From Chloroflexota bacterium (GTDB taxonomy: Bacteria; Chloroflexota; UBA11872; UBA12225), in NCBI GenBank assembly GCA_030447525.1, contig JAUJOR010000010.1, forward strand, positions 141,113 to 205,112: a stretch of 64,000 bases of DNA. The letters are read 5' to 3'. The translations under genes and the position numbers were made by a program. The notes below the pieces were generated by a model. That model saw only the letters and a program-made list of their open reading frames with translations. It ran no database searches and was not told the origin of the DNA. Positions 2,680-64,000 of the stretch are shown in pieces. How positions within the stretch are numbered: position 1 is the stretch's first letter; every line of letters starts with the position of its first letter.

Positions 2680-4071
2680 TCACGGGCGCGGCAGGTTCAT
2701 GATGGACTGCATCTCGCTGTTCAGCTCGCGCAGGAGGCCCGGCTCGACCTTGGCCTGCCCGTCCGTGATCTTGCGCGTGGCGGGGTCGCGGATGGCCTCA
2801 ACTTCCGGGGCGCGGAAGTTGGCCGGGGCGCTGTAGGGCTCCTTGATCTCCTTGATGGAGTCCAGCTGCACCTGCTGCGCCTGCTTCGGGAGTTGCGGGT
2901 GGTTCAAGATGCGCGAATCGGCCCACACGTCCGGCCGGCCGCCCAACGTGGTGGAGCCCTTGGTCTGCAGCCCCAGCGCCACCCCCATCTCCTTGTCGGT
3001 CAGCCACTTCATCAGCTCAAAGGCGGCGTCGGGGGCCTTGGACTGCCTGGCCACCGACTGCGCGTCCCCGGCGAACATCCCGCCGCGCTTCCCGGTCTTG
3101 GTGTGCTTGGGCATCATCGCCCCGTCCCACTTGAACTTGTCGCCCACCTTGGGGAGCAGCTCCACCGTCTTGAAGTTGAAGTACGTGCGCCCGATCATGG
3201 CCACCTTACCCTCCACGAACGCCGCCGCCGCGCCGGGGATGGGATGCATCGTGCGCTCGCGCTGGATCAGGTTCTCGTACCACTGCATCGCCTCCAGCAC
3301 CTGGGGCGAGTCCATCGTGGCCTTGGTGCCGTCCTTGGAATAGGCGTCCCCGTTGAACGCCCGCAGGTGCGCCACGTGCGCTTCGCCCCCCCAGGAGTTG
3401 ACGGCGTAGCCCCACTGTGTGGTCTCCTGGCCCTGGCGCTCGGTAAGCTGCTGCGCCGCCTTGAACAGATCGTCCAGCGACCAGTTGTTGGTGGGGAGTG
3501 GCACGCCGCGCCTCTCGAAGAGGTTGGCGTTGTAGAAGAAGCCGGCGGCGAGCACCTGCCCCTTATAAGGCAGGCCGAACAGCTTGCCGTCGATCTTCAT
3601 GATGTCGATCACCTCGGGGAACCACTGCTTCAGGTCCACCTTGTCGCGCGCCAGCAGGTTGTCGATGTTCAGGAAGGCCCCGGCCGCGGCAAAGTTGTGG
3701 AAGCTCTGGCTGCCCAGGAAGGAGTGCACGTTGTCCGGCAGCGTGTCCGAGGCCGCCATCGTCTGCAGCTTGGCGATCAACTCGCCGCCGGTCACCACCT
3801 CGCGCTCGACCGAGATGTGTGGGAACTGCTCCTTGAAGGCCGGCAGCCGCGCGTCGAGGGCCTGGGACTCCTGGTCGAGACGCTCGATCAGCCGGATCTG
3901 TGCCGGCGCGGTGCCCCTTGCCGCCTGCCCGCCGCCCCCGCCCTCGCCTCCAGACCCGGCGCCCGGCGCGCAGGCGGCGAGCGCCGCCAGACCCGCCGTC
4001 CCACTTGCGCCCAGGCGGGCCATCGCCCGCCGCGTGACCCGTTCCGCCACCCACTTGCCCGTTGATTCCAT
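2680..4071 (-). CDS. ABC transporter sugar-binding lipoprotein (family 1 extracellular solute-binding protein)
   Basis: The ATG at 4071 (MESTGKW) is preceded by AAGAGGAG. The N-terminus has a signal/lipobox (LAALAACAPGAG). Typical SBP motifs appear throughout. The longer upstream extension in the ORF track is Arg-rich and is probably not translated. Confidence 0.8.
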   Translation of the reverse strand: MESTGKWVAERVTRRAMARLGASGTAGLAALAACAPGAGSGGEGGGGGQAARGTAPAQIRLIERLDQESQALDARLPAFKEQFPHISVEREVVTGGELIAKLQTMAASDTLPDNVHSFLGSQSFHNFAAAGAFLNIDNLLARDKVDLKQWFPEVIDIMKIDGKLFGLPYKGQVLAAGFFYNANLFERRGVPLPTNNWSLDDLFKAAQQLTERQGQETTQWGYAVNSWGGEAHVAHLRAFNGDAYSKDGTKATMDSPQVLEAMQWYENLIQRERTMHPIPGAAAAFVEGKVAMIGRTYFNFKTVELLPKVGDKFKWDGAMMPKHTKTGKRGGMFAGDAQSVARQSKAPDAAFELMKWLTDKEMGVALGLQTKGSTTLGGRPDVWADSRILNHPQLPKQAQQVQLDSIKEIKEPYSAPANFRAPEVEAIRDPATRKITDGQAKVEPGLLRELNSEMQSIMNLPRP

Positions 4072-4308
4072 GCCATGATCTCCTCTTACGCTGGTCATGC
4101 TTGCATCCCTCCCTGGGAGACCTCTCCCAGTCAGACCAGGCCCCATCAGTGTGCCCGAGGACGCGCAGCCACCGGCCGGGCTTCTCGCCTCAGGCTGACC
4201 GACGGCCCGGACTTCCAGTGCCAGCTGCAAGAGGGCATCAAGCCGTTGCTGCCCAACCGCGCCTCGGTGGCGCAGGCGGTACGTGAGCTGCGCCGGATGT
4301 TGGAGCCG

Positions 4309-4336
4309 CAAGTCCGTAGTTACGTAGTTACGTAGT
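4309..4336. promoter_or_regulatory. AT-rich tandem repeat (GTAGTTAC x3, containing palindromic TACGTA cores) abutting the start codon of the glycoside-hydrolase gene
   Basis: CCGTAGTTACGTAGTTACGTAGTATGG stands out in a 70% GC background. It lies in the divergent SBP / GH intergenic region. Confidence 0.3.
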
Positions 4337-5449
4337 ATGGAAGAAAGTATGACAGCCGACAGGCTAGACCGATTTGGCGGCTGGACCGCCGTTCAAGCTG
4401 ACGCGACGGGGTTCTTCCGGGTAGCAGAGGTGGCCGGCCGGTGGTGGTTCATCACTCCGGAAGGGCATGGGTTCCTCTCGCTGGGTGTGAACCACATCGA
4501 CTCGTCGGCGCTGAAGTACCCGGATAACCACGCTGTCTGGAAGGGGCGCTTCGGGGACGAGGAGACGTTCCTAAAGCACGGAGTCTACCGGGATCTCACC
4601 GGGTGGGGTTTCAACACTATTGGATGGTCCCAGGAGGTGGTGGTGCCCGGCCGGACACACACCCCTCCTTGGGGCCATCACCAGTACCGGTGGGCCGGCC
4701 TCCCGTACTGTCACCTCCTCCCATTCAGTGAGATGGAGCTGTGGAACAAGTATCCAAGGTATCCCGACGTCTTCAGTACCGAGTTCGCGGATTGGTGTGA
4801 CTATGTAGCCCGCGCATCTTGCGCGGACATGGCCGACGATCCGTTCCTCATCGGCTACTTCTACGCCGATGTTCCTGCCTGGGGAGGGCACCCCGGGGGG
4901 CAGCAGTGGCCCGGCGCAGCGGAGGGGGATGCGGCCGGCCAGCCGGCTGATCTTCAGCACATTGCCGAGCGTTATTACCAGACCATTCACGACGCTGTGC
5001 GCCGGTACGATCCAAACCATCTCCTTCTGGGAGACCGGTACGAGGGTCGGGCACCCCTGCCGAAGGTGGTCTTAGACGCCATGGTCCCCACCGTAGACGT
5101 GGTGAGCATGCAGTATTTCCCGCCACTCGACGGTCTGCTTGATCTGGTGCAAGAATGGCATGGCGCTACGGGGAAGCCGGTCCTGCTCGCCGACAGCGCC
5201 TTCCACCTGCATAACCGACGCATGGCCATTGCCGGTCAGGCCGAGCGCGGCCGGCTGTACGCCGAATGGACGGAGCGCTGTTTCCAGGTCCCCTGCTTTA
5301 TCGGCTGGCACTGGTGTGCGTACATTGAGAATCTGTGCCGCCGCGCAGGGCTGAAGGACCGCTTCGATGAGCCATATGGTGAAGCGATCGGACCGATGAG
5401 CGAGGCTAATCGTCGCGTCTATCGGGTGGCTACCGGCACGCAGGCATGA
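4337..5449 (+). CDS. Putative glycoside hydrolase, TIM-barrel GH5-like / DUF4038-like family (family not resolved)
   Basis: 370-aa ORF with a WWFITPEGHGFLSLGVNHI cellulase-like N-terminal segment and a Trp/acidic-rich barrel. It is divergent from the SBP gene, and an AT-rich repeat sits at its start. Confidence 0.45.
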   Translation: MEESMTADRLDRFGGWTAVQADATGFFRVAEVAGRWWFITPEGHGFLSLGVNHIDSSALKYPDNHAVWKGRFGDEETFLKHGVYRDLTGWGFNTIGWSQEVVVPGRTHTPPWGHHQYRWAGLPYCHLLPFSEMELWNKYPRYPDVFSTEFADWCDYVARASCADMADDPFLIGYFYADVPAWGGHPGGQQWPGAAEGDAAGQPADLQHIAERYYQTIHDAVRRYDPNHLLLGDRYEGRAPLPKVVLDAMVPTVDVVSMQYFPPLDGLLDLVQEWHGATGKPVLLADSAFHLHNRRMAIAGQAERGRLYAEWTERCFQVPCFIGWHWCAYIENLCRRAGLKDRFDEPYGEAIGPMSEANRRVYRVATGTQA

Positions 5450-5474
5450 CGATCAATCTGCCGAGCCTTGTGCC

Positions 5475-5927
5475 CTACGCTTGCCTCAGGCTGGCGTGGA
5501 ACTCGTGGAAGTCCTCCAGCTTGTTCAGGGTCACGGCGTCCTTGATCGAGCCGTCGTCAGGCAGGCCCACGACGCTGAGGATGGACTGCCGCGTGCTGTC
5601 ATCATGGATGTACCCGGCGATGGCAGCGTTGTGGCGCTCAATGGCCGTCGGGTCGATCTGACCCCCCTTTTGCTGGCGTACCCACTGCTCGAACTGCGGG
5701 TACGTCGGGAACTCGGTCTTGAGGTACCCAATGGTCTGCTCGCGGTCGAGGCCCAGCCCGTCCAACGTCATCTGGTCGAAGCCCCTGCCACACTCGTCGT
5801 ACCCTTCGTGGAGCATCCCCTTGCTGCTCAGGAGCACCTTCTGCCACAGCCGCGGCAGGTGCATTGCCCCCAGCGGCCCCTTCACGTCAGAGCTGATCAA
5901 CGGCACCATCTTCTGCCCGGCCATCAC
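5475..5927 (-). CDS. DUF5069-family small protein
   Basis: 150 aa. The pattern VPLISSDVKGPLGAMHLPRLW...YPQFEQWV...GLPDDGSIKDAVTLNKL matches my recollection of the DUF5069 consensus. Confidence 0.5.
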   Translation of the reverse strand: MMAGQKMVPLISSDVKGPLGAMHLPRLWQKVLLSSKGMLHEGYDECGRGFDQMTLDGLGLDREQTIGYLKTEFPTYPQFEQWVRQQKGGQIDPTAIERHNAAIAGYIHDDSTRQSILSVVGLPDDGSIKDAVTLNKLEDFHEFHASLRQA

Positions 5928-6172
5928 ACCTCCCCTTCGTCGTCACGCCCCGGCAACCCGTTCGCCGGCGGCCCGTACATGGGGATGCGCCGGCCCCCGA
6001 GGCGGAGACAATGTAATCGGCCGGCGGCGCCGTGTCAAAGACCGGACCCGTCGTCGAGCGGACGCCATCGTCGCTTCGTGGGGCACGAAGGCGTTCGAGG
6101 CCCAGGGCCAGCGTGCGCTGCTCTACCAGTGAGCCACTCTCCCTATCCCGCTATCGTAGGGCAATAGCCTCC

Positions 6173-7075
6173 TCAATCGCCCTGACGCCACCGCTCATCG
6201 GCATCGGTCAGCAGGTGCCGCAGGTAGCTGTCTCGGTTCGTCAGAAAGTCGTGCGTGATCCGGAAGTACTCGGTGTCTTCGTACGCGACCGGCACGATGC
6301 TCGCCGCCGTGAGCTGGTAGATCCGAGCGGTAGGGTAGGCCAGCAAGACCGGCGAGTGCGTGGCGATCACGAACCGGGAGTCGCGGCGCCGGACGTGCTC
6401 ATCGAGCAGCGGGAGCAAGGCCAGCTGGCGGGCGGGAGAGAGGGCGGCCTCCGGTTCGTCCAGGAGGTAAAGGCCGTTCCCGCGGAAGCGGTGCGTTGCC
6501 AAGGCGAGAAACGCCTCGCGCCGGCCAAAGCTGCGCGCCGGCGCGGTGGTCTGGATTGCCAGCTCCATCAGAGGCCCAACTGTGTCCGCATTGGGGGGTT
6601 CATCGGTGTTGTGGCTCGGGGCTCGTTCAACTAAGTGCTTCAGGGTCGAAGCGGCGATGAAGCGCCGGAACGAGATGGAGGAGAGGCCGGCCAGGGCGCA
6701 CACGGCATCGCCCGGGAGGACCGGAATGGCGACGATCACGAACAGCCAGAGGCCGCCCCGTGCCGCCAGCACCCCGGTATAGCGCTCGATAGTCTGAGGC
6801 TTCAGCAGGCGCCGTACCAGTGGTTTCCCCCAGCGACGGGCGAGCGCAAACACCACCATCGAGCCAGCTGCTACGCCGCCCAGGGTGAGCGCGAGCGCCA
6901 TCCAGGGGCCGAAGGCCAGGGCGCCAACGGCAGGCAGCAGGCCGCCGGGGAGCGGCGAGAGGATCACCTGGGCGGCCTCGACGAGGAAGTAGGCCAGCGG
7001 CGCCAGGAGGCCAAACTCCTCGCCTGGCCACGCTCGCCCAGCGGGAGCGCCAGGTGACCCTGACGCGCGGGGCAC
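6173..7075 (-). pseudogene. Chimeric ORF: a TVP38/DedA-like membrane segment (about 6610-7075) fused to the C-terminal Walker-B/H-loop part of a COG3910-type AAA/ABC-like ATPase (about 6173-6610)
   Basis: The N-terminal half (LLAPLAYFLVEAAQVILSPLPGG...GKPLVRRLL) resembles the VTT/DedA domain. The C-terminal half (GLYLLDEPEAALSP...FVIATHSPVLLAYP) is an ATPase lacking its Walker A and signature motif. One frame spans two unrelated partial genes. Confidence 0.5.
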
Positions 7076-7443
7076 AGCGAGGACTGCCGGCCGCGGTGGC
7101 CGACCGCCAGCGCCTCGTGCAGGTGCTGCTCAACCTGGTGCGCAACGCCGTGGCGTACACGCCGGAAGGCGGTATAGTCGCCGTCACCGCCGAGCGCTCC
7201 GACCCCGGACAGGTGGCGTTCACGGTCGTCGACACCGGCGTGGGCATTGCACCGGAGGACCTGCCGCACGTCTTCGAGCGCTTCTACCGCGCCGACCCAT
7301 CACGCACGCGGGCGAGCGGTGGCTTTGGCCTCGGCCTCGCCATCGTGCGTGACCTGGTCAGGGCGGTGGGAGGAGCAGTGGAGCTCGAGAGCGTGGAGGG
7401 CGAAGGGACGCGCTTCCGCGTTCTGTTGCCGGCGGCGCCCTGA
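7054..7443 (+). pseudogene. Sensor histidine kinase remnant: only the HATPase_c C-terminal domain remains
   Basis: The sequence DRQRLVQVLLNLVRNAVAYTPEGG...VDTGVGIAPEDLPHVFERFYRAD...GLGLAIVRDLV carries the N, G1 and G2 boxes. No HisKA or sensor part lies upstream, which is instead occupied by the opposite-strand chimera. Confidence 0.65.
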
Positions 7444-7485
7444 CATCACCTGCTTCGATAGACAGCGGCCGGCGCACGGAAGCAG

Positions 7486-8106
7486 ATGGCACGCATTCTG
7501 ATCGTCGAGGACGAGGTCGATCTCTCCAACCTGCTGCGCTCGCACCTGGAGCAGGATGGTCACGAGGTGGTGCAGGCGTTCGACGGACCAACAGGTCTGG
7601 CGCAGGTGGAGCAGCACAATCCGCAGCTGGTGATCCTGGACTGGATGCTCCCCGGGCTAGACGGATTGGCGGTCTGCCGGCGCATCCGGGAGCGCCACCT
7701 GGTGCCGGTGATCATGCTCACGGCGCGGAACGAGGAGATCGACCGCGTGCTGGGCCTGGAGGCGGGGGCCGATGACTATGTCCCTAAGCCGTTCGGGATC
7801 CGCGAGCTCCTGGCCCGCGTGCGGGCCGCGCTGCGCCGTGGCGCGCTCGGCACGGGCGCGGCCACCAGCGTGGGCGCCCTGCACTCGACGAACGCTGCGA
7901 GGGCGTCCGCTCCGGCCTCGCGCGGCGGATCGGAGCTCCCGGCGGCGCCGGGTCCGGTGGTGCGGGGGTCGCTCCGCATCGATCCGGCGGCCCGCACCGT
8001 CTCAGTCCAAGCCAACCAGGTGGACTTGACCCGCACGGCGCAGGCGAAAAGTGCCAGTCCTCGTGCCGCGCTGGGAAGGTCATCAGCCAGGAACCTGTGC
8101 GGTTGA
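7486..8106 (+). pseudogene. OmpR-family response regulator with an intact receiver domain and a truncated or missing winged-helix DNA-binding domain
   Basis: MARILIVEDEVDL...LDWMLPGLDG...DDYVPKPF is a complete REC domain. The linker reaches the point LRIDPAARTVSVQANQVDLTRT where the wHTH should begin, but the downstream sequence is unrelated in every frame. Confidence 0.6.
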
Positions 8107-8218
8107 TCGTCGGCGGCGCGTCCAGTGGGGTGACTAAGGAACCACTGGGCCGGCGCCCCTTGGACGGGCACGTACTCTTCTTGGCTCGGCGTGCCTGGAC
8201 GCGTATCCGGCTTGCGTG

Positions 8219-8650
8219 TTACTGGGACATGGGCAGGTCAAGAAGGTCGAGCCCGCTGTGATCATCTTGGACACGGCCAACATGCACGTCTTCCGTGCGC
8301 AGCCACACTTCGAGCGTGGGGTACACCGTGGCCTCCTCCACATGACCGCCCAGGACGGTGAAGTCCCGGCGGCTGAACACACCGTGCAGGTGCAGGTGGG
8401 GCTGGCCTCCCTTGCGCGAGGCATTCCCCTGGAAGCTCACCACTTCCATGTTCTCCTCCACGTCGCGGTATTCATAAGCGCGAGTTGCCGCATTCCAGTA
8501 GCCCAGGCGCACGCTCCGCACTGCCCCGACAGCGCTCAGGTTGGCGAACTCCACGTCCTCGGCGCGCAGAAACGCGAGGAGCGTCTCCTTGAGCGGCTCT
8601 TCCCGTTCAATCCGCACGATGTATCGATCCCCAAATCGACGAAAACGCAT
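8219..8650 (-). CDS. PPC (DUF296) domain protein, predicted DNA-binding (PD1-like) protein
   Basis: 143 aa. The pattern MRFRRFGDRYIVRIEREEPLKETLLAFLRAEDVEFANLSAVGAV...LHLHGVFSRRDFTVLGGHVEEATVYPTLEVWL is typical of this family. Confidence 0.6.
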   Translation of the reverse strand: MRFRRFGDRYIVRIEREEPLKETLLAFLRAEDVEFANLSAVGAVRSVRLGYWNAATRAYEYRDVEENMEVVSFQGNASRKGGQPHLHLHGVFSRRDFTVLGGHVEEATVYPTLEVWLRTEDVHVGRVQDDHSGLDLLDLPMSQ

Positions 8651-9084
8651 GTCAGTCTCCCTGTGGCTGTATCGGCTGCACGGGTACTTGGTTCGGGACC
8701 TGGCTCATGGTCCGCGGTGCCGCACCACGTCAGGTCACTGGTCGTGCCGCGAGCGGGTCGGATCTATGAGCGCTTTGGGCTTCCCAGATCGCCGGCGAGG
8801 GTGCGGTGAGCGCCGAGCCGATGATGCTACGCCTTGCACCGGTGGGGCGGGGCCCTGAGGAGATATCGCGACCACACCCTTGAGGAATGCTCCCCAAGAT
8901 GTCTCCGGTCACGCCCGGAACTCCCTCCCTCTCACGATCCTACCGTCTGTTCAGTGCTGCACGTGCGCCGGCTGCGCGTGGGTTCGGAGCGGCACCGGAG
9001 CGGGCGCGGGCGGCATACTAGAGGTGGAGCACTGCTGTTGCTGTACCGAGGGCCCGTCGAGCGCGCCCCCATTGCCTGACGCCG

Positions 9085-9636
9085 ATGACCATTGTCTTGC
9101 CGACGACGCTGTTGCTCGTCCGCCACGGTCACGTGACCGACAACACACCCGGCGCCGGGGCCCGCCTGTGCGGCTGGACCGACCCGCCGCTGAGTCCGCT
9201 CGGCCTCCGCCCGCGGTGGCGGGCGGCCCGGCGCGAGATCGGCTGCGGCGAGCTGGACGGCTGGATAGTGGAGGACGTGCGCCAGCACTTCCCGACCCTG
9301 TGGGCGGCCAACACACGCCAGGAGGACGCGGGGTTCCGTTGGCCGGGGAGCGAGAGCTACCGCGCCCTCCGCCGGCGAGTGCTGCGGGCGCTCAGGGGCA
9401 TCGCCGGCGCCCACCCGGGCCGGCGGGTGCTCGTGGTGACCCACGCCGGGGCGATCACGCAGGTGCTGGGCGCCCTCGCCGGGACGAGCCCTGCCCCCTG
9501 GGAGGCGTTCCGCGCCGGCAACGCCAGCATCACCGAGCTGCGCTGGCACGCCGGTGGAGGCGCACTCGTCCGCTTTGACGGCCGCGGCCACCTGGCGGGC
9601 GTGGCGGGCGACCCCGAGGCGCCGCTGCCGGCCTAA
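9085..9636 (+). CDS. Histidine phosphatase family protein (phosphoglycerate-mutase-like)
   Basis: It has LLLVRHGHVTDN (the RHG motif), GWTDPPLSPLG and VVTHAGAI. At 183 aa it is rather short for the family. Confidence 0.55.
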   Translation: MTIVLPTTLLLVRHGHVTDNTPGAGARLCGWTDPPLSPLGLRPRWRAARREIGCGELDGWIVEDVRQHFPTLWAANTRQEDAGFRWPGSESYRALRRRVLRALRGIAGAHPGRRVLVVTHAGAITQVLGALAGTSPAPWEAFRAGNASITELRWHAGGGALVRFDGRGHLAGVAGDPEAPLPA

Positions 9637-10760
9637 CGGCGCCAGCAGGCGTCGGCGCGGTGGACGACGCGCAGGTAGGCACGGGCCGCCCGCGCGGCGT
9701 CGGCGCGCGCCCGCGGCCCCGGACTCCGCCACCCGTCCGCCACGGCCAGGTGGTAGCGGAGGGTGCCGGCCAGGGCGTTGCAGGCGCCGGCGAACCAGTA
9801 CCCGTCCCGCAGGTCGCGGTCGAGCCGGTCGGGCAGGGCGCGGGCGTAGAGATACCGGCGCAGCAGCGTGTCGTGGCGCCGCGCCGCCTCCGGCTCCCAC
9901 AGCCCCAGGGACTGCAACCAAGAGCTGACGTCCTCCAGCGGAGACCCGCGCCGGACGCGCCCCCAGTCGAGGAGCACCAGCCGCAGGCACCCGCCGCGCC
10001 GGGCGACGACGACGTTGCCCGGATGGACGTCGCCGTGGATCGGGCCCGGTTCGAGCCCCGGCGACGGGGCCTCCAGCAGCCGGCGCCGGACGGCCGGCAG
10101 GGCGGCGACAACGCGCCTCATCTCCGGCACGGCCGGCCGGAAGGATGCCCACTCTCCCTTCGCCGTCACGGTTTCCAGGGCTTCGAGAGTCGTGGCGGCC
10201 GATTCTCGCAGCTCGACCTCGTAGTCCCAGTCGGCCCCCGGTGCGTGACCGACGGTCGCCAGCGCCGCGTGGAGCCGCGCCAGTTCCTCCAGCGTCCGGC
10301 CGGCCAGAGTGGTGTCTCCCCAAGGCCAGCGGCGCCAGGGGCGGACATACTCTAGGTACAGGTCGCAGCCCCCGCCGCGGCGCTGGACGTGCAGGAGCCG
10401 TGGCGTGAGGGGCGGACCGTCCAGCCCGGCCAGCGCCTCGTAGACCGCCGCTTCACGTGTGGCACCATCACTTCTCACGTGCTTCACCACGAATTCGGTC
10501 GAGTCCGCCGGGCGCGCTGCGCCTGCCCGGCGGACTCGGACGTGGGCCACGGTCGCGGCCTGCAGCCCGCCCCGCAATGGGCGGATGTCCAGCCCCACGC
10601 TTCCCAGCCCGCCGAGCGCGCCGGTGGTGTGCCGCGCCGTGAACGTCACCAACGCGCCCCGGTCAAGTCCCCCATCGACGTCCCCATCGGCGTCCTCGTC
10701 GGCCAGCGTCCGTGCCATCGCGTCCGCCATCACGTCGCCACCTGATCTGGTACCCGTCAT
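9633..10760 (-). CDS. Phosphotransferase-family kinase (APH / choline-kinase-like fold)
   Basis: 375 aa with the HGD catalytic motif (GPIHGDVHPGNVVV) and LVLLDWGRVRRG (Asp of the DFG-like motif). Confidence 0.65.
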   Translation of the reverse strand: MTGTRSGGDVMADAMARTLADEDADGDVDGGLDRGALVTFTARHTTGALGGLGSVGLDIRPLRGGLQAATVAHVRVRRAGAARPADSTEFVVKHVRSDGATREAAVYEALAGLDGPPLTPRLLHVQRRGGGCDLYLEYVRPWRRWPWGDTTLAGRTLEELARLHAALATVGHAPGADWDYEVELRESAATTLEALETVTAKGEWASFRPAVPEMRRVVAALPAVRRRLLEAPSPGLEPGPIHGDVHPGNVVVARRGGCLRLVLLDWGRVRRGSPLEDVSSWLQSLGLWEPEAARRHDTLLRRYLYARALPDRLDRDLRDGYWFAGACNALAGTLRYHLAVADGWRSPGPRARADAARAARAYLRVVHRADACWRR

Positions 10761-10802
10761 GCCACCTGTCCCTCTCGCCCCGATCCAGGGCCGATGGCAA
10801 GT

Positions 10803-11141
10803 CTAGCGACTGTTCTGGGCTGCACGTGCGCCACCGCCTGCATCCCGGCCCCGCGCGGTCTCCTCCTCGTCCAGGATCTGCAGCAAGAGGTCAGACTCCC
10901 CTGCCACCACGCCAGGGACGAACGCCCCCAGCAGACCGAGCTGGGCCGCCAGGTAGGCCGTTCCCAGGGCCACGGCGACCACCGCCAGCAGGAACAACTC
11001 CCGGCTGCGTAAGGCCGCCACGCGCTCGAAGAGCCAGGGGAAGAGGCGCAGCCCCACTGGTCCCAGGCTCGCCAGCAGGGCGGCTGCGACGCATGCGGCG
11101 CCGGAGGCCACGGCCAGGTTGACCAGGAGGGTGCCGCTCAC
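10803..11141 (-). pseudogene. Internal fragment of a CPA2-type cation:proton antiporter (KefB/KefC-like)
   Basis: SRELFLLAVVAVALGTAYLAAQLGLLGAFVPGVVAGESDL matches the central TM region of Kef-type antiporters. Only about 110 aa are present, with no N- or C-terminus. Confidence 0.45.
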
Positions 11142-55640: not shown

Positions 55641-56911
55641 CTCCACACCGTAGCGCTTGATCACGTCCTGGTTGAGCTCCACGCCCAGGCCGGGCTGCTG
55701 TGGGACCGGCAGGCAGCCGTCGGGCTCGATCTTGAACGGCTCGGCCAGGATGTGGTGCGGCACCATGCTGCCGGCCTCGGCGTCGTAGGCCGTCCGCTCG
55801 CGGGTGGACGAGCGCTGCCTGCCGGGCGGGAAGAGCGTGCACTCCTGTGGGCCCCGCGCGTTCGGGACCGCCGCCACCAGTTGCAGCGTGGCCGCCATGC
55901 CGACGTGGATACTAGCCCGGATTATTCACGGGGTTGAGACCGCCCAGATCACAGCGGCCCTTGTGTCTACATGAGCCACCAGGAGGGAAATGGCCCTGTC
56001 TCAGGCACCGTTCCAGGAGTAGCTGGGCTAGCACCGTTACCGTGTATGAATAATCCGGGCTAGTGTCGTGCGGCGTGAACGCCTTGCTGAACGCCTCAGC
56101 CAGGTGCGCGACCTTCTGGCAGGTCAGCAGCCCGCCCGCCTTGATGGGGTCCGGCTGCACCACCTCGCACGCGCCGCGGACGATGGCGTCCTTGTAGCGC
56201 CAGAGCGAGAAGTCCTCTTCGCCGAAGGTGATGGGGATGCTAGTGTGGTGGTTGACGTACGCCAGCGCATCGAGGTCGCGCTCGGGCACCGGCTGCTCGA
56301 GGTGCAGCACGTTGAACGGCTCCAGCGCCTGGCACATGCGCACCGCGCTGGGTGCGGACCACGCGCTGTTCGCGTCCAGCAGCAGGTCGACGCCGTCGCC
56401 GACGGCGGCGCGCACCGCGCGCACACCGTCCAGGGTGGTGTCCGGGCGGGCGTCGAACCCCTGGCGGGTGGAGACCTGCAGCTTCAGAGCGGTGAAGCCG
56501 GCCTCCACCGCCTGCGCCGCGAGATTCGCCTGGGCCGGCGGCGTGTCGCGCGCGATGGTGAGGTACACGCGCACCCGGTCGCGGTAGGCGCCGCCGAGCA
56601 GCTGGTGGACGGGGACCCAGCGCCTTGCCCTTGAGGTCCCACAGCGCCAGCTCCAGGCCGGAGAGGGCGCACATCTGCAGGCGCCCCTCCAGCTTGTAGG
56701 TGCCGATGGCCAGGCGCTCGTGCAGCGCCTCGATGCGCAGCGGGTCTTGCCCAACGGCCAGCGGCGCGAGCGAGTGCTTGAGCGCGGCCACGATCAGCGG
56801 TGCGCTCATCGGGCTGGCCTCGCCGACGCCCGTGACGCCCTCGTCGGTTTCGACCCGTACCAAGACGTAGCGGTCCGCCAGCACGATGGGCGTGACGCGG
56901 GTGATCTTCAC
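55635..56911 (-). pseudogene. Enolase-superfamily (mandelate racemase / sugar-acid dehydratase) gene, interrupted by a MITE and carrying a frameshift near 56630
   Basis: The N-terminus VKITRVTPIVLADRYVLVRVETDEGVTGVGEASP has a GTG start overlapping the upstream stop. The frame changes after WDLKGKALG. The body reads ...VAHLAEAFSKAFTPHD, then the 154-bp element, and the authentic C-terminus IHVGMAATLQLVAAVPNA...GLGVELNQDVIKRYGVEA resumes at 55910. Confidence 0.7.
55911..56064. mobile_element. MITE-like non-autonomous element with 18-bp perfect terminal inverted repeats (ACTAGCCCGGATTATTCA)
   Basis: 154 bp, AT-richer than its flanks. Removing exactly these bases fuses ...FTPHD to IHVGMAATLQLV... 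in frame, restoring a canonical enolase-superfamily C-terminus. Confidence 0.7.
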
Positions 56912-57588
56912 TACTTCACCATGTCCAGCAGGTTCTGGGCCTCGGACGCGGCCTGGCTCAGCGCGTCCTTCACGCCGACCTTGCCGTCGAGGACGCTCTC
57001 CACCGCCTTGTTGATCACCTTGCTGATGTCGTCCCAGGCGGGGCTCTGCGGCATGGCCTGCGACCCTTCCAGGTTCTTGAGCACCACGTCGCTCCAGTAC
57101 GGGTTCAGATCGCGATAGGCCTTCTCCTCGTTGAACTTGCGCACCGCCGCCGGCCGTTTCTGGGCCAGGAGCGCCTTGCGCGCGCCTTCCTCGAGGCTGA
57201 TGTACTTGAGCAAGGTCCAGGCGGGCTCGTGCTGCTGACTGGCCTGCGGGATGGCGTACACCCAGACGTAGTTGGCGACCGTCTTCGACTTCGCCTTGGC
57301 ATTCTTCGAGTTGTACGGCGGCACGGCGGCGCCCAGCGGGAAACCGGGCTCCTCCTCGTCGATGCGAAAGAACATCGAGACGATCTCGGCGCACATGTCC
57401 TCCACCAGCTTGGTGCGCACGCCGTCCCATTCGTGGAAGAGCTCCAGCGTTACCGGCGCGGTGGACGCGGCGCCGCCACCGGGAGCGCCGTCCCTCTGGG
57501 CGCCGCAGGCCGTCCCGAGCAGCGCCAGGAAGCCACCGCCTGAGGTCAGACTGACGCGCAACAAACGCCGCCGTGTCGCCATCGCCAT
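56911..57588 (-). pseudogene. Sugar ABC SBP with an internal deletion (about 200 aa missing)
   Basis: The signal peptide (MAMATRRRLLRVSLTSGGGFLALLGTACG) and the SBP C-terminal tail (PAWDDISKVINKAVESVLDGKVGVKDALSQAASEAQNLL) are joined in a 225-aa ORF. Confidence 0.5.
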
Positions 57589-57871: not shown

Positions 57872-58954
57872 CTAACTGCTCCCGCCGATGCCTCCGAGCG
57901 TGACCCTGCCGGCGCTGGCGCAGAACTCCGTCCCGTACGTTTTCGAGCACGCGCGCATCTGCGTCACAATCTCGGCGCCCGCACCGTCCGCCGGATTGAG
58001 CGGCGCCGGGTCGTTCGCATCGTCGCGCCGCAGCGGGATGACCGCCACCTCGGCCAGCGTCCGGTCGCGCATGGCGCACCGCACCAGCAGGCCATCCAGG
58101 CTCTGGCCCCGCATCTTCGTCCAATCGAAGGCGAAGTTGCCCAGGCTGTAGAAGACCGGGCGCTGGCCGCCCGGTCCCTGGAACAGCTCGACACCCTGCA
58201 GCACGTGCGGGCCATGGCCGATCACCACGTCCGCACCTGCCTCGACCGCCACTCTGCCGATCGCCCGCTGGTACTCGCACGTCTGGCTGCTGCCCGACAC
58301 CCCCCAGTGGCACGAGACGACGACCAGGTCCACCTGCTCGCGCAGCCGCCGCACGTCCGTCTGCATCGCCGCCAGCTCGCCGGCGTCGGGCCAGGTGACC
58401 ACCTCCGGCGGGCCGCCGGGCATCTCGTGCAGGCGCCGGTTGGGCAGGTAGGCGGTATGCGCCCTGATCGTCGCCACGCCGGGCGTGCGCTCAGTGGCGG
58501 CGTGCCCCGCGGGCCAGAAGACCGACGTGTACGAGAGGAAGCCGAAGCGCACGCCCCTGCGCTCGACCACCACCGGAGCGCGCGCCTCGTCGCGCGTGCG
58601 CCCGCCCCCGGCGTGCCGGATGCCCGCCTCGTCCAGCACGGCGAGGCTGCGCAGCATCGCCTCGGGCGGATAGGTGACGTTGTTGGCGCAGCCCACGACG
58701 TCGACGCCGGCCGCGACGAGGCCGCGCACCATGCGCGGCTCGGAGTGGCGCCAGCCCGCCTTGTGCGGGATGTCCGGCGCCGCCGGGTTCTCGGCAGGGC
58801 CGGCGAGCGGTCCCTCGAGGTTGACGAAGCGTACGTCCACGTCCCGGAATAGGGGCAGGACGTGCCGGAAGGCGCCGGACGGGTCCTCACGGAACTGGAG
58901 ATTGGTGTCCCCCGCCAGGAGCAGCGTGACGGCGGCGCGGGCGTCTGAGGCCAC
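57872..58954 (-). CDS. CapA-family metallophosphoesterase (poly-gamma-glutamate biosynthesis CapA-like)
   Basis: The pattern LLLAGDTNL...NLEGPL...VVGCANN...GHGPHVLQGVE is typical of the CapA/PgsA fold. Confidence 0.65.
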   Translation of the reverse strand: MASDARAAVTLLLAGDTNLQFREDPSGAFRHVLPLFRDVDVRFVNLEGPLAGPAENPAAPDIPHKAGWRHSEPRMVRGLVAAGVDVVGCANNVTYPPEAMLRSLAVLDEAGIRHAGGGRTRDEARAPVVVERRGVRFGFLSYTSVFWPAGHAATERTPGVATIRAHTAYLPNRRLHEMPGGPPEVVTWPDAGELAAMQTDVRRLREQVDLVVVSCHWGVSGSSQTCEYQRAIGRVAVEAGADVVIGHGPHVLQGVELFQGPGGQRPVFYSLGNFAFDWTKMRGQSLDGLLVRCAMRDRTLAEVAVIPLRRDDANDPAPLNPADGAGAEIVTQMRACSKTYGTEFCASAGRVTLGGIGGSS

Positions 58955-58957
58955 GGC

Positions 58958-60073
58958 TCAGGCTCCCGCGCCGCCGGCGAGCAGGCGCTTGATCAGGTGC
59001 TCGCGCCACGGGACGCCCAGGCCGGGCTCGTCCGACAGCGTCATGTGGCCGTCCGCGACGGCGGGCGGATCGTACAGGTCGTTGGAGTGGTCCTGCTCCA
59101 GCCGGGGCCGGTACTCCACGATCAGGGAGTTGGCAACGGCGGCCACGCAGTTCGCTCCCGAGTACACGTTGCCGTGCGGCGCCATCGGCAGGTGGTACGC
59201 CGAGGCAAACGCTGCGATCTTGAGCCACTCGGTGATGCCGCCGCAGGTGCGGGGGTCGTCTTGGACGATGTCCACGCCCTGCGCGCCGATCAGGTCGCGG
59301 AAGCCCCAGCGCGTGAACTCGTTCTCGCCGCTGGCCACCGGGATGTCCAGCGCGGCGCACAGGGCCGCCTGGCCGCGGTAGTCGTCGGGCTTGATCGGCT
59401 CCTCGAACCAGTACGGCTCGTAGCGCTCGATCATCCGGGCGAAGCGCAGGGCGGTGGTGAAGTCCCACGCGTTGTTCGCGTCGACCATCACGTCCACGTC
59501 TGGTCCCACGGCCTCGCGCACCACCCGCACCCGCTCGGCGTCCTGCTGCAGGCCCGCTCCCGGCCAGCCGACCTTCATCTTCACCGCGCGGTAGCCGGCG
59601 TCGAGGATGCCCTCCATCTCAGTGGCCAGCTCACGCAGGCCCTTGTCCTCGCCATAGTAGCCTCCGGCGCCGTAGATGGGCAGCCGGTTGCGGTGGCCGC
59701 CCAGCAGCTTCCAGACGGGCTGGCCCAGCGCCTTGCCCCGCAGGTCCCAGAGCGCGACGTCCAGCTTGCCGAGAGAGGAGATGTACTCCCCCTTCGCCAC
59801 GGGCTTGCGGTTGTGGGCGTACAGGCGGTCCCAGCACGCCTCGGCGTTGAGCGGATCCTGCCCGATCAGCAGGTCGCGCAGACGGCCCAACACGGTGGCG
59901 TCGGCCTCGAAGCCGTAGCCGGTCACCCCCTCGTCGGTGCGCACCTCCAGCCGCGTGCCGAAACGCGGGCTCGACCCGTCAGAACGCTCCTGATGGACGA
60001 TCGAGTTCCAGGTAGGGGCAATCGTCTGCGGCGGAAGCGGGACGCGCGTCGCTGTGATGTCCGTGATCTTCAT
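58958..60073 (-). CDS. Enolase-superfamily enzyme (mandelate racemase / muconate lactonizing family; sugar-acid dehydratase-like), intact
   Basis: 371 aa with KMKVGWPG, the metal ligands DANNAW...EEP...D, and the C-terminal PHGNV...LIVEY. Confidence 0.75.
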   Translation of the reverse strand: MKITDITATRVPLPPQTIAPTWNSIVHQERSDGSSPRFGTRLEVRTDEGVTGYGFEADATVLGRLRDLLIGQDPLNAEACWDRLYAHNRKPVAKGEYISSLGKLDVALWDLRGKALGQPVWKLLGGHRNRLPIYGAGGYYGEDKGLRELATEMEGILDAGYRAVKMKVGWPGAGLQQDAERVRVVREAVGPDVDVMVDANNAWDFTTALRFARMIERYEPYWFEEPIKPDDYRGQAALCAALDIPVASGENEFTRWGFRDLIGAQGVDIVQDDPRTCGGITEWLKIAAFASAYHLPMAPHGNVYSGANCVAAVANSLIVEYRPRLEQDHSNDLYDPPAVADGHMTLSDEPGLGVPWREHLIKRLLAGGAGA

Positions 60074-60297
60074 GCCGTCCTCTCCCTCTCACGCTGGCAC
60101 TCTGGCAGGTACTCGACCCGGGCGCCGATCCACAGGCCGCGGCAGCTCGGCGAAGGGACGGCTCACGACACGCTGGCGTGAGGTGCTTCCCTCCTGGACG
60201 ACTAGGCCCGCCGTGCTGGGCGGTCGGCGCGAACACCTCGCGCATGCCGGGGACGCGGTGTGGGTGTCCGTCATCGCCGTCGCCGTCCTGGTGGCCA

Positions 60298-61803
60298 TTA
60301 CGCTCCTCTCGCCTGTTCCCGCGCCGGCAGCTCCGGCAGCGCCAGCGCGTCGTTCGTGGCCCGCTGCCAGGCGCGCAGGCGGTCGAGCAGGTCCGTGGCG
60401 ATCCCCGCATTGCCGGCGTCGTGGAAGGCGTTGTGCAGCTCGCCCGGGTCGGCGACCAGGTCGTAGAGCTCGAACTCGCGCGTGGCGTGGACGTTGAGCT
60501 TCCAGCGCCCGCGGCGGATGGTGCGGGCGTCCACCGACCGCAGCTTCGTCTCCGCGTCGCGCGTGGTGTTCACCTCGCCGCTGCCGGCGATCTGGCGCGG
60601 CAGTCCGTTCCACTCGATCACCACCTCGGCCTCGTCGGGCGCCGTGTCCCCCCCGGCGAGCAGCGGGACGAGGCTGCTGCCCTGCACGTGCTCCGGCTCC
60701 GGCTGTTCCAGCAGCTCGAGCAGCGTGGGCGTCAGGTGGACCTGGCTCACCGGCGTCGTGATGCGCCTGAGAGCCAGGCCTGGCGCGCGCACGATCAAGG
60801 GCACGTGGGTGGCGCCCTCGTACGGCACGCTCTTCTGGAGCAGGCGGTGCTCCCCCATCATGTCGCCGTGGTCGGTGCTGTACACCACGACGGTGTCATC
60901 CGCCAGTCCGAGCGCTTCCAGCCGGTCCAGGATCTGGCCGACGTACTTGTCCACCAGCGTGCAGGAGCCCCAGTAGCGAGCCTTGAGCGCCTTCCAACCG
61001 CGCTCGTCGTCGGTGGAGACCTGCGGGTTGTCGCCGGCGTAGGCCTGGCGGCGCTGGCGGTAGCGTGCCGGCACCGTCTGCTCCATCTCGCGGTACCAGG
61101 ACTCGGGCAGCGGCACGTCCTCCGGCCGGTAGAGGCTATCGAACGGGCTGAAGTAGGGCGGGTGCGGCTCCAGGAAGTTGACCATCAGCAGGAAGGGGCG
61201 CTTGCGGTCGGCGGCGCGCTCGTCCAGGAAGCGGGCGCACTCCGCTGCCTGAAACGCCGGCTTTCCCGCCTCTTCCGGCAGGCGTGCTTCAGTGGGCCGG
61301 CTGAATACCCTGGCGCCGTCACGCGCCTCGTCGGGTGGCTCGTAGCCGCGCGAGACCAGGAAGTGGTGGTAGTCGCTGAACCCCTCGACGGCGCGGTCGC
61401 GCGTGTAGGTGTCCTCGGTACTCACCCAGAAGTCGAAGCCGTGCGTATTGAGCGCCGGCCGGCCCAGCTCGTTCCCCAGATGCCACTTGCCGACGTAGCC
61501 GCACGTGTAGCCGGCGGGCCGCAGCAGCTCGGCCAGTGTCGGCATCTCCGCGGACAGCGGGATGTTGTTCTGCAGCACGCCGTGGGTGTGCGGGTAGAGG
61601 CCGGTCAGCACCGAGGCGCGCGAGGGGCTGCACACCGGCTGGGTGCAGTACGCCTGCTCGAACAGCGCGCCGCCGGCGGCCAGCCGATCGACGTTGGGCG
61701 TGCGCGGCCCGCTGGCGCCCGCCGAGCTGCGGTACGCGCCGATCGTGTCGGGGCGCTGCTGGTCGGTCCAGATGAAGAGGACGTGCTTGGGTGGTTGAGT
61801 CAT
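60298..61803 (-). CDS. Sulfatase
   Basis: It has VLFIWTDQQRPD, QPVCSPSRASVLTG (CxPxR) and VVYSTDHGDMMGEH. Confidence 0.85.
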   Translation of the reverse strand: MTQPPKHVLFIWTDQQRPDTIGAYRSSAGASGPRTPNVDRLAAGGALFEQAYCTQPVCSPSRASVLTGLYPHTHGVLQNNIPLSAEMPTLAELLRPAGYTCGYVGKWHLGNELGRPALNTHGFDFWVSTEDTYTRDRAVEGFSDYHHFLVSRGYEPPDEARDGARVFSRPTEARLPEEAGKPAFQAAECARFLDERAADRKRPFLLMVNFLEPHPPYFSPFDSLYRPEDVPLPESWYREMEQTVPARYRQRRQAYAGDNPQVSTDDERGWKALKARYWGSCTLVDKYVGQILDRLEALGLADDTVVVYSTDHGDMMGEHRLLQKSVPYEGATHVPLIVRAPGLALRRITTPVSQVHLTPTLLELLEQPEPEHVQGSSLVPLLAGGDTAPDEAEVVIEWNGLPRQIAGSGEVNTTRDAETKLRSVDARTIRRGRWKLNVHATREFELYDLVADPGELHNAFHDAGNAGIATDLLDRLRAWQRATNDALALPELPAREQARGA

Positions 61804-62021: not shown

Positions 62022-62808
62022 CGGCGTGTTGTTGACCACCGGCGGGACGAGGAACAGGTTCCGGCCGGCTGGGGTGCCGTCGTCCGGAGCGTCTTCCGCG
62101 GCCCGGGCGTACACGAGCGGACCGTTGAGCGCGAGCACGCCGGCCTGCGCCAGCCGCGGCAGGCCGGCGGCGGTAGTGCCCGGCCAGCCGCTCGGCGGTC
62201 CAGCGGGCGCCGGCGTCGCCGGAGCCGATGTGCTCGTGGTAGAGCACGTCGAACGGCACGTGGTCTCCGGCCAGGGCGGCGTAGCAGCCGCGGAACTCGT
62301 GGACCCACTGCCGCGTCCCCTGCAGCCCGGGGGACTGCCCCTCGTGGGCCAGCCACTCGAAGATGGGCCGCGAGTAGACGACGGCGACCTGAGCGGCCGA
62401 CTCCACGTCGCGGTAGTACGACTCGTGCCGGGCCAGAAAGCGGTACGTCTCCTGGAGGGCCGGCAGCGCGCGCGTGTCGTCCTGTCCCTGCGCGGTGCCG
62501 GAGAGGGCGATCCACGGCTGGCCGCCGCCGGCGGCGATCTGCATCACGTCGTAGGCCAGCTGGCCGGGAGGCTGGCCGGAGCGCCGGCTGCCCTGCAGGC
62601 CGAAGTAGCTGAGCAGCACCGTGATCGGCTGGTTGTGCTGGAAGGTGCGCGCCAGCTGGCACTCCTCGCCCGCCCAGTAAGGCCAGTGCGGGTGCGCGTA
62701 CCAGGGCGCCTCCCCGGCGGCGCCGGCCGCTGTTCGAGCGAGCGACGTTTGACCCACGGCGGTCTCCAACTTACCATAGCCGCGGCCCCCGTCGAGCATG
62801 TCCATCAT
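61921..62808 (-). pseudogene. Protein resembling the trimerisation (M) domain of GH42 beta-galactosidases (class-I glutamine-amidotransferase-like fold); frameshifted near 62150 and with a duplicated C-terminal peptide
   Basis: AAQVAVVYSRPIFEWL...GDHVPFDVLYHEH is the GH42-M hallmark. The tail continues in another frame (LALNGPLVYARAAEDAP...PEFAFWRQETAAAVAGKIK). The last codons are repeated by a 56-bp tandem duplication. No catalytic TIM-barrel domain lies upstream. Confidence 0.35.
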
Positions 62809-62835
62809 GTCCGTAGGGAGGATGTGGAGTCGGAC

Positions 62836-64000
62836 ATGGAGCGCGATACAGAGACCATGGACCGGCCCGCGGGCTGGACTCGTGCGGCCGCGAGTCCCAG
62901 AACGCGCCGCGCCCTGCTCGTCGGCGGCGCCGCCAGCGCGTCCCTGGTACTGGCGTCGTGCCAGGCCGGCGGCGCCGGTGCACCGCCCCCGGCGGCGCTG
63001 CAGCCGGCCGAGCTGAGCTTCATGGTCTCGGTCAACCCGCAGGACTTCGGGCACGACCGGGTGGTGGACCAGTTCCAGAAGGCCTTGCCACAGGTGAAGG
63101 TGGAGCTGGTCCACACGCCCCAGAACTACGACCAGAAGTGGGACTCGATGCTGGCGGCCGGGACTCCGGCCGAGGTGACGCAGATCAACGACGACTTCGT
63201 GCCCAGCCACGGACGCAAGGGCCTGCTGCGCGCCCTGGACCCCTACGTGACGCGTGACAAGATCAGAAAGAGCGACTTCTACGACCTGTTCTGGTCGTTC
63301 CCGGTGGCGGACGGGAAGTGGTTCGCCCCGGCGCTGGGGTTCCGGCCGTCGCTGCTGTACGTCAACGTGGACCTGTTCCAGCGCGCCGGTGTCGCCCTGC
63401 CCGCGCAGGACAAGTGGGAGGTGCCCGGCTGGACCTGGGATGACTTCCTGGCCGCCGCGCGCAAGCTGACCGCCGACACCGACGGCGACGGCAAGATCGA
63501 CCAGTGGGGCGCCAGCCTCTACCACGATACGATCTTCGAGTCGCTCTGGTCCTGGAACAACGGTGGCCCGGGGTGGTGGACCGACGACGCGCTGCGCCTC
63601 GGCCTGGCCGAGCCCAAGGCGACCGAGGCAGTGGAGTGGGTGGTCGACCTCACCTGCCGCCACCAGGTGCAGCCCCCCTGGGACGACCTGCGGCAGACGA
63701 ACGCCGCCACCCTCTTCCAGACCGGGAAGCTGGCGATGATGCTGAGCGCCACGCCCAGCGTGCCGACCTTCCGGCAGCGCGCCACGGGCTTCACCTGGGA
63801 CGTGATCCCCTACCCGCGGCGCGCGGCGCGCGTCAGCTCAGGAGGGCTCTCCACCTACTGTATCCCCGCCGGAACGAAGCTGCCCGACCACGGCTGGGCG
63901 TTCCTGAGCTACGCCATCGGCGACGAGGCGCAGAAGGTGTACTCTGGCGGTGGGGGCATGCTCCCGCCCAGGATCCCCCAGGGCAAGCTGTACGTGGAGG
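62836..64000 (+). CDS. ABC transporter sugar-binding protein (Tat-lipoprotein), 3' end outside the window
   Basis: MERDTETMDRPAGWTRAAASPRTRRALLVGGAASASLVLASCQAGG is followed by SBP motifs to the window end. It is not in the ORF track because it has no stop. The long antisense ORFs listed there (61921..63663 and 61319..62662) are Arg/Gly-rich artefacts. Confidence 0.75.
   Translation, partial: MERDTETMDRPAGWTRAAASPRTRRALLVGGAASASLVLASCQAGGAGAPPPAALQPAELSFMVSVNPQDFGHDRVVDQFQKALPQVKVELVHTPQNYDQKWDSMLAAGTPAEVTQINDDFVPSHGRKGLLRALDPYVTRDKIRKSDFYDLFWSFPVADGKWFAPALGFRPSLLYVNVDLFQRAGVALPAQDKWEVPGWTWDDFLAAARKLTADTDGDGKIDQWGASLYHDTIFESLWSWNNGGPGWWTDDALRLGLAEPKATEAVEWVVDLTCRHQVQPPWDDLRQTNAATLFQTGKLAMMLSATPSVPTFRQRATGFTWDVIPYPRRAARVSSGGLSTYCIPAGTKLPDHGWAFLSYAIGDEAQKVYSGGGGMLPPRIPQGKLYVE

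Follow-up and report, generated by a model that had tools for sequence, protein, structure and literature searches.

Orphan substrate-binding proteins (SBPs) that borrow a distant ATP-binding cassette (ABC) core are known, for the most part as sets of one to three close paralogs. In Pseudomonas, the choline/betaine/carnitine importer Cbc uses the orphan SBPs CaiX and BetX (Chen et al. 2010; Thomas 2010, "Homes for the orphans"; both as cited in PMC8938411), and marine Synechococcus carries MsBP, an orphan sugar-type SBP encoded outside any ABC operon (PMC8938411). In CUT1 systems, a shared ATPase is normal, the examples being MsiK in Streptomyces and MsmX in Bacillus (PMC5730181, PMC7658222). 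For the Bug/TctC orphans of the tripartite tricarboxylate transporters (TTT) in Bordetella and Rhodoplanes, distant shared membrane partners are the working hypothesis (PMC11452294). Here we describe a 64-kb segment of a soil Chloroflexota genome (contig JAUJOR010000010.1; ~70% G+C throughout), hereafter called the window, which contains eight intact SBP genes and encodes no intact multi-pass transporter of any class, be it a permease, an ATPase or a member of the major facilitator superfamily (MFS). With a probability that we put at roughly 0.55, the seven SBPs of CUT1 type are working lipoproteins in catabolic operons, served by a shared translocator encoded elsewhere.

Plain lists of open reading frames (ORFs) from this high-GC window are dominated by spurious frames; genes were therefore called by third-position GC, in a start-optimised version of the procedure, and annotated with Pfam. 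Counted on the basis of Pfam SBP_bac_1 and SBP_bac_8 gathering scores, the intact SBP genes number eight and are designated S1 to S8 in order of position (Table 1). Seven belong to the CUT1 sugar type, with 67-109 bits on SBP_bac_1 against a cut-off of 26, and one (S2) is PotD/YdcS-like. Such a density of SBP genes is far beyond chance. A twin-arginine (RR) motif, a hydrophobic stretch and a lipobox cysteine are predicted in all eight and in two SBP remnants. Pairwise identity among the eight proteins is only 24-31%; they are therefore old, distinct binding proteins and not the products of a recent repeat. An initial annotation of this DNA had listed eleven sugar-binding lipoprotein genes, pseudogenes included. 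The eight intact genes lie where it had placed them, and their description as lipoproteins is borne out at the sequence level by the RR motif and lipobox of every one. The remnants, however, are three rather than four, as the candidate at 31114 was rejected for lack of SBP similarity (SBP hidden Markov model (HMM), E=31), and the term "sugar-binding" suits the seven CUT1-type proteins but not the gene at 22605, which matches SBP_bac_8 and SBP_bac_11. The solved structures nearest to S2 are spermidine/putrescine-type SBPs, while S7, the only CUT1 SBP compared with the PDB, is nearest to the arabino-oligosaccharide SBP 6rjy (8.8e-28). No NCBIfam equivalog reached its cut-off for any SBP, hence no substrate is assigned, and no TctC-family match is listed among the Pfam matches of the window SBPs.

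Three types of search were made for transporter genes in the window. A tblastn search with E. coli MalK, MalG and MalF gave matches only at 23936-24097 (Walker A region) and 24151-24303 (EAA loop), both within a deletion scar next to S2. Searches with jackhmmer, started from eight permease and five ATPase seeds and run against all six-frame ORFs of the window, returned the scar only; in the control loci, the same searches missed no permease or ATPase. Finally, no window ORF of at least 100 aa has more than three hydrophobic segments, a number reached by four ORFs: the permease remnant of the scar, a VKOR protein, a DedA/VTT fragment and a 127-aa ORF. The three approaches agree with one another and with the initial annotation, according to which the window has no intact permease or ATPase.

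The orphan state is shared by relatives of this genome (loci on related contigs are given L numbers). The closest genome in the species-representative collection, L006 (DAOTTI010000275, a Chloroflexota metagenome-assembled genome (MAG) of 69.8% GC), has orthologs that are 77-84% identical to the window proteins at the protein level. Named homologs are all labelled "Chloroflexota bacterium", and the remaining ones come from soil-type metagenomes. In related Chloroflexota contigs, orthologs of window SBPs (53-98% identical) are likewise without permeases. Those of S5 (62-94% identical) have no permease within 10 kb in L001, L002 and L006, where other SBPs lie alongside; those of S7 (53-94% identical) have none nearby in L009, L011 and L022; S8 is followed in L019 (94.7% DNA identity) and in L020 by a soluble protein of 766 and 714 aa, respectively, and by no permease; and L013 contains four SBPs in 21 kb, again with no permease. 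Neither BPD_transp_1 nor ABC_tran occurs near the S5, S7 and S8 orthologs or in L013. The precomputed Pfam lists for related contigs give a lower bound on the number of SBPs, since the gene at L011 4963-6372, a clear SBP by the SBP HMM (E=9e-72), has no recorded Pfam match.

To put a figure on this pattern, SBPs and transporter genes were tallied in ten non-redundant loci of the lineage, an SBP-centred sample of 218.6 kb that corresponds to a few percent of a genome. The sample contains 29 intact SBPs (28 CUT1 plus S2), several remnants and not a single intact CUT1 permease or sugar ATPase; its only intact ABC importer is the pst phosphate operon of L001. The ratio of CUT1 SBPs to permeases is thus 28:0 in this few percent of a genome, chosen around SBPs. 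The same HMMs found permeases in the controls L012, L021 and L014. Neither the window nor the nine related loci show an SBP gene next to two BPD_transp_1 genes, the layout of controls L012 and L021. As an illustration, if 80% of CUT1 SBPs adjoined permeases (a figure that is assumed, not measured), finding 28 orphans out of 28 would have a probability of ~0.2^28. Orphan S5, S7 and S8 have remained intact across relatives spanning synonymous divergences (dS) of ~0.5-1.1. Ratios of nonsynonymous to synonymous divergence (dN/dS, Nei-Gojobori), measured among the SBPs for S2, S5 and S7, are 0.26-0.33 for S5 and 0.11-0.36 for S7; a 902-aa protein encoded next to S7 and an FAD-dependent oxidoreductase encoded near S3 both give 0.17. 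Altogether, the orthologs of S5, S7 and S8 and the dN/dS values of S5 and S7 show that CUT1 orphans are conserved and under purifying selection, and are not decaying.

The SBP genes are found in tight co-directional clusters with genes for enzymes. Those enzymes that were checked (sulfatases, PD40-repeat protein, GFO/IDH/MocA oxidoreductase) have no signal peptides, and the adjacent regulators, of the IclR and GntR types, are cytoplasmic as well; the substrate must therefore enter the cell. Because cytoplasmic catabolism needs import and yet no transporter is encoded locally, the most economical reading, and the one that we infer, is that the SBPs still serve uptake through a shared translocator located at a distance. 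In the mechanism that we propose, the CUT1 SBPs would be exported by the twin-arginine translocation (Tat) pathway and anchored to lipid, each providing specificity and being co-regulated with its own pathway. Each would be transcribed with the cytoplasmic enzymes that degrade its substrate, namely sulfatases, MR_MLE dehydratases, GFO/IDH/MocA and FAD oxidoreductases, and large soluble glycosidase-like proteins. Translocation would be carried out by a permease pair and an MsiK-type ATPase, encoded elsewhere and common to many SBPs, as in a hub with spokes. Of the options considered in the initial annotation, that of permeases shared at a distance fits best.

The local absence of permeases is a derived state, and the ancestral layout was canonical, because a cluster that keeps its SBP together with two permeases has a counterpart where a piece of one permease is left. 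The complete cluster, in the more distant relative L021 (61% GC), consists of a PhnD-like gene, an SBP (37% identical to S8), two permeases, GHL6 and an uncharacterised 459-aa protein. L009 keeps orthologs of the SBP (49%), of GHL6 (58%) and of the 459-aa protein (59%), whereas both permeases are gone; what is left, at 548-760, is a 71-residue C-terminal permease tail ending '...LMAASVVALLPCLIVFFAGQRLFVQGFATTGIKG'. A canonical layout is also present in L012, from another Chloroflexota MAG, where two BPD_transp_1 genes accompany an SBP 29% identical to S7. The family comprising S8 and the SBP pseudogene at 40830-41873 (44.7% identical to the permease-linked SBP of L021 and in the same orthogroup) is closer to that SBP than the window SBPs are to each other, which suggests that the orphans stem from different canonical systems and that permeases were lost more than once. 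More tentatively, the uncoupling may extend to the lineage as a whole, with dozens of SBPs (~25% identical), each retained in a catabolic operon of its own and their permeases lost independently, docking on one or a few promiscuous translocators.

Several points weigh against the shared translocator. The SBP-centred sample of ~219 kb yielded neither a CUT1 permease nor an MsiK-like ATPase from this lineage, which leaves the hub hypothetical, and SBPs known to share a translocator are usually far more alike than 24-31%. For the CUT1 SBPs, the ortholog evidence for the orphan state is that of S5, S7 and S8. Pairwise dN/dS values average the whole divergence and are compatible with a recent relaxation of selection. 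The locus itself carries more damage than average and bears marks of decay: besides the scar and the three SBP remnants, there are truncated genes for MR_MLE and Meth_synt_2 (at 54.9-56.8 kb), a Crp regulator broken in two, a VTT/AAA_21 chimera and insertion sequence (IS) fragments. SBP fragments are also found in the relatives L001, L011, L019 and L020. Our confidence is moderate because the hub is hypothetical and because sharing among such divergent SBPs would be unusual.

If no translocator existed, the SBPs might act as surface sensors or capture glycans at the cell surface. Such a role would account for the failure to find a partner transporter in 219 kb and would more easily accommodate the divergence of the paralogs, which would have no common docking partner to fit; moreover, SBPs are known to have been co-opted for sensing and chemotaxis (PMC8938411, PMC11113362). 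However, their neighbours here are cytoplasmic catabolic enzymes and cytoplasmic regulators, the solved structure nearest to S7 is that of a transport SBP, and, by the Pfam annotation of the window, none of the eight SBP genes adjoins a gene for a histidine kinase or a chemoreceptor (the sole response regulator, at 7486-8106, lies in an unrelated, poorly coding stretch). The gene context thus lends no support to the sensing role that the initial annotation had envisaged, and we regard a non-transport function as unlikely.

The marks of decay could also be taken at face value, the SBP genes being non-functional leftovers that mutation has yet to disable. The SBP remnants and SBP fragments, the permease tail of L009, the IS fragments and truncated genes, and the removal of the ATPase-permease partner of S2 by a 2.28-kb deletion all point in this direction. 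Yet none of the eight full-length SBP genes contains a frameshift, a truncation or an internal deletion, lesions that are present in the three SBP remnants and in the scar. Signal peptide and lipobox are kept in all eight, the operon partners are conserved, and the persistence of intact orphans over the divergences given above, at dN/dS of 0.11-0.36 for S5 and S7, does not fit a relic. The "advanced state of decay" considered in the initial annotation is therefore real for the S2 partner and for the three remnants; as a general explanation that would include the CUT1 SBPs, it appears quite improbable.

S2 is a separate case, that of a recently orphaned gene: in this genome, a deletion of ~2.28 kb destroyed the fused ATPase-permease that was its partner. 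Orthologs of S2 in L014 and L016, identified by scanning metagenomes, are 83% identical and accompanied by an intact transporter. The order in L014 is SBP, a 991-aa ORF (ABC_tran, TOBE_2, BPD_transp_1) and then an AMP-binding gene, the same one that the window has. In the window, the ATPase remnant is in frame 1, its ATG overlapping the S2 stop codon, and the permease remnant (the last ~158 residues) is in frame 3. DNA homology between window 22836-24098 and L014 10043-11356 resumes at window position 24088 with L014 position 13624; ~2.28 kb are missing relative to L014, with the junction near 24075-24098. The two Pfam halves and the comparison with L014 and L016 thus substantiate the deletion scar that had been proposed at 23861-24564 (here 23861-24561). 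The dN/dS of S2 against L014 is 0.13, a value that mostly reflects history before the deletion, and the sole in-frame start lies 47 codons ahead of the RR motif, as compared with 9 codons in the ortholog; for these reasons, the present functionality of S2 is uncertain. The partner is one fused ORF in L014 (11068-14043), whereas in L016 (1301-4305) ATPase and permease are two overlapping ORFs. The fusion, which is unusual in an importer that works with an SBP, may be specific to a lineage or may result from a frameshift.

Delivery to a membrane partner outside the ABC class, such as an MFS protein or a transporter of an unrecognised type, would be analogous to what occurs in tripartite ATP-independent periplasmic (TRAP) and TTT systems. 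In L006 and L009, MFS genes do lie a few kb or less from orphan SBPs, and several conserved neighbours belong to no Pfam family. But no MFS or other multi-pass protein is encoded in the window; the neighbours of 902, 766 and 320 aa without Pfam match were rejected as membrane partners, all three being soluble, and a recurrent family of ~460 aa has no N-terminal signal. To our knowledge, no SBP_bac_1-dependent secondary transporter has been described, and we consider this explanation very doubtful. Lastly, it is most improbable that permeases were missed in gene calling or searching, or lie just beyond the window: high-GC DNA does yield many spurious ORFs and S8 is cut by the window end, but tblastn, jackhmmer on six-frame ORFs and hydropathy concur, permeases were recovered in controls L001, L012, L014, L016 and L021, and L019, which shows the region beyond the end, has the soluble 766-aa protein and no permease after S8, the only SBP at an edge and the one for which the initial annotation's proviso of permeases immediately outside could have applied.

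Table 1. Positions of the SBP genes, remnants and neighbouring genes in the window, and of the ~460-aa family in related loci.
Feature	Position	Strand	Evidence and remarks
S1, CUT1-type SBP lipoprotein	2680-4071	-	SBP_bac_8 2.5e-25, SBP_bac_1 4.3e-25; RR, lipobox LAAC
S2, PotD/YdcS-like SBP lipoprotein	22605-23864	+	SBP_bac_8 3.7e-19, SBP_bac_11; lipobox SAAC
S3, CUT1-type SBP lipoprotein	34778-36115	+	SBP_bac_1 4.3e-24; RR, lipobox GAAC
S4, CUT1-type SBP lipoprotein	36142-37461	+	SBP_bac_1 3.2e-18; lipobox IAAC; 26 bp past S3
S5, CUT1-type SBP lipoprotein	42144-43529	+	SBP_bac_1 8.2e-24; lipobox FAAC; conserved orphan
S6, CUT1-type SBP lipoprotein	43936-45255	-	SBP_bac_1 3.7e-24; lipobox AAAC; closes long minus-strand operon
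S7, CUT1-type SBP lipoprotein	53050-54492	-	SBP_bac_1 9.2e-27; lipobox LAAC; opens operon; conserved orphan
S8, CUT1-type SBP lipoprotein	62836-64000, cut by window end	+	SBP_bac_1 4.7e-31; lipobox LASC
SBP pseudogene in three frames, N-terminus gone	40830-41873	-	HMM positions 132-180, 177-354, 381-442; partial Pfam SBP_bac_1
SBP N-terminal stub (signal, lipobox, first strand only)	43572-43868	+	HMM positions 4-57
SBP with ~240-residue internal deletion; signal and C-terminal lobe kept	56911-57588	-	HMM positions 9-56 and 297-442 only; RR, lipobox GTAC
ABC ATPase N-terminus remnant (Walker A), left side of scar	23861-24091	+	ABC_tran positions 1-46/137, E=5.8e-10; MalK tblastn 1.5e-9
Permease C-terminus remnant (EAA loop, last helices), right side of scar, other frame	24088-24561	+	BPD_transp_1 positions 62-175/184, E=4.5e-9
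Two cytoplasmic sulfatase genes, after S1, same strand	658-2391 and 2-559	-	Pfam Sulfatase; no signal peptide
Epimerase-like gene and FAD-dependent oxidoreductase, upstream of S3-S4	31442-34533	+	Pfam Epimerase; FAD_oxidored 1.5e-84
Fe-alcohol dehydrogenase, after S4	37584-38705		Pfam
IclR-family regulator	39945-40712	+	IclR_C 4.3e-41
PD40-repeat protein, malate synthase, GFO/IDH/MocA oxidoreductase, xylose-isomerase-like TIM barrel, between S7 and S6	45319-50250	-	Pfam; gaps 15-63 bp
902-aa soluble protein, directly downstream of S7	50289-52997	-	No Pfam/NCBIfam match, no hydrophobic segments
PGA_cap, MR_MLE dehydratase and sulfatase genes, divergent from S8	57872-61803	-	Pfam
IS remnants: DUF772/IS5-like and IS1595-like transposase fragments	27759-30103	+	Pfam DUF772, partial DDE_Tnp_IS1595, Zn_ribbon_IS1595
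~460-aa family members (related loci)	L001 7669-9081, 11404-12801; L002 4407-5837, 8073-9452, 9582-10997; L009 3326-4714; L021 13612-14991		

The long minus-strand cluster is read from S7, in the order 902-aa protein, xylose-isomerase-like TIM barrel, GFO/IDH/MocA oxidoreductase, malate synthase, PD40 protein and S6, with gaps of 15-63 bp. A protein of ~900 aa follows every S7 ortholog, at L009 11583-14243 (55% identical), L011 9965-12766 (76%) and L022 11589-14237. When the 902-aa sequence was searched against the PDB, the only match was marginal (6hzf, BPa0997, E=0.12), to a protein that we take to be a GH138 glycosidase. The ~900-aa partners of S7 may be an undescribed glycosidase family. 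Malate synthase, at 46548-48152(-), has a 67% identical copy near the S7 ortholog of L009 (1664-3265); its presence in the S7-S6 operon hints at a pathway ending in glyoxylate. The soluble protein of 714-766 aa that follows the S8 orthologs, at L019 3287-5587 and L020 8793-10937, belongs to no family, and its start overlaps the SBP stop in L019. The sulfatase-S8 arrangement is syntenic in L020. Both pairs, S7 with the ~900-aa protein and S8 with the 766-aa protein, are conserved.

Other neighbours have counterparts in relatives as well. The FAD oxidoreductase of the window is 79-84% identical to its L006 ortholog, and the IclR regulator is 68% identical to an IclR gene of L002, near which the S5 ortholog lies. 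The ORF at 31322-33103(+), of 553-593 aa, has two Epimerase/NAD-binding matches, at residues ~34-152 and ~373-439, and may encode a tandem or fused protein of the short-chain dehydrogenase/reductase (SDR) type. Beside orphan SBPs, GHL6 and malate synthase, related loci carry, often in several copies, members of a ~460-aa protein family that lacks both a signal sequence and a Pfam match. These members are 50-60% identical to one another, and the window has neither a member nor a remnant of the family. These proteins were considered as divergent SBPs or new permeases, and rejected as either for want of a signal peptide or a hydrophobic segment; they form a separate cytoplasmic family.

SBP remnants were sought with an HMM built from the window SBPs and database homologs and run against all six-frame ORFs. 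The fragments at 40827 and 41080 turned out to be parts of one frameshifted SBP pseudogene. The stub at 43572-43868 is 48% identical to the N-terminus of its intact ortholog, L011 4963-6372, and the deletion in the 56911-57588 gene spans HMM positions 57-296. The pseudogene at 40830-41873, which lies upstream of S5, is also broken at the syntenic position L001 9118-9824(-), the two being 50-57% identical in protein and 74% identical in DNA over 276 bp. Given a dS of ~1 for S5 between the two genomes, this pair is either surprisingly old or the result of parallel decay.

Sequencing error was rejected as a source of the frameshifts: genes of 825, 902 and 534 aa and all eight SBP genes are intact, and disruptions cluster in particular genes. 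The segment from 4300 to 16800, in which third-position GC is lower and the coding signal thus weaker, may be older or foreign; a number of its genes are damaged. It includes a chimeric ORF at 6173-7075, composed of a VTT/DedA piece and an AAA_21 C-terminal piece, a Crp-type regulator split across frames (13496-14083 and 14157-14879) and a DUF772 transposase fragment (15849-16610). The interval that separates S7 from the SBP with the internal deletion contains, at 54937-56754(-), a Meth_synt_2 fragment (profile positions 1-76/324) and an MR_MLE gene that matches MR_MLE_C only (positions 4-161/219), with no match to the N-terminal domain; a short MR_MLE gene is found at the syntenic spot in L020 too.

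The result of interest is that 28 of 28 CUT1 SBPs sampled over 219 kb are without local permeases, and that those tested are under purifying selection. If a shared translocator does serve them all, the lineage would be a natural experiment on the diversity of SBPs that a permease pair can accept, and would stretch the accepted limits of divergence for SBPs acting on one permease. The set would then be an ABC-importer counterpart of the Bug/TTT systems, and transporter counts based on permeases would fall far short of the range of substrates used by such soil bacteria. Should there be no translocator, the SBP fold would have acquired a new function outside the cell, and a conserved one.

Orphan SBPs are well established, as are importers with several SBPs. 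In the open-access literature, we found neither a description of CUT1 orphans spanning a whole lineage of Chloroflexota nor a specific account of an orphan-SBP expansion in Chloroflexi/Chloroflexota. With canonical CUT1 operons, the present genes share the SBP_bac_1/SBP_bac_8 family, Tat/lipoprotein anchoring and the lack of a local ATPase gene; they differ in that the two permeases found beside the SBP in controls L012 and L021 are missing. Like MsBP, a cluster D/CUT1-like SBP is conserved here as an orphan, but MsBP is one gene on its own, with a context of mreBCD type, in contrast to an array of orphans in catabolic operons. As in the Bug/TctC case, binding-protein genes far outnumber membrane components and most have no adjacent partner; there, however, the proteins are of the TctC family, the transporter is secondary and the excess is genome-wide, whereas the excess reported here is sampled locally. 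Cbc, as presented in the source cited above, involves three related SBPs for similar quaternary amines and a known core, unlike the at least seven CUT1-family SBPs per 64 kb, 24-31% identical, of a monoderm Chloroflexota, with a hypothetical core. Two of the features that mark orphans with a distant core (Cbc/CaiX/BetX and MppA-Opp type) are found here: no adjacent transporter, and a place in a catabolic operon for the presumed substrate, co-directional with genes for cytoplasmic enzymes at gaps of 15-63 bp. According to that same source, the SBP genes of the Cbc/CaiX/BetX system also lie in catabolic operons devoid of transporter genes, specificity coming from the SBP and translocation from a core encoded elsewhere, which is the division of labour that we propose for the Chloroflexota locus.

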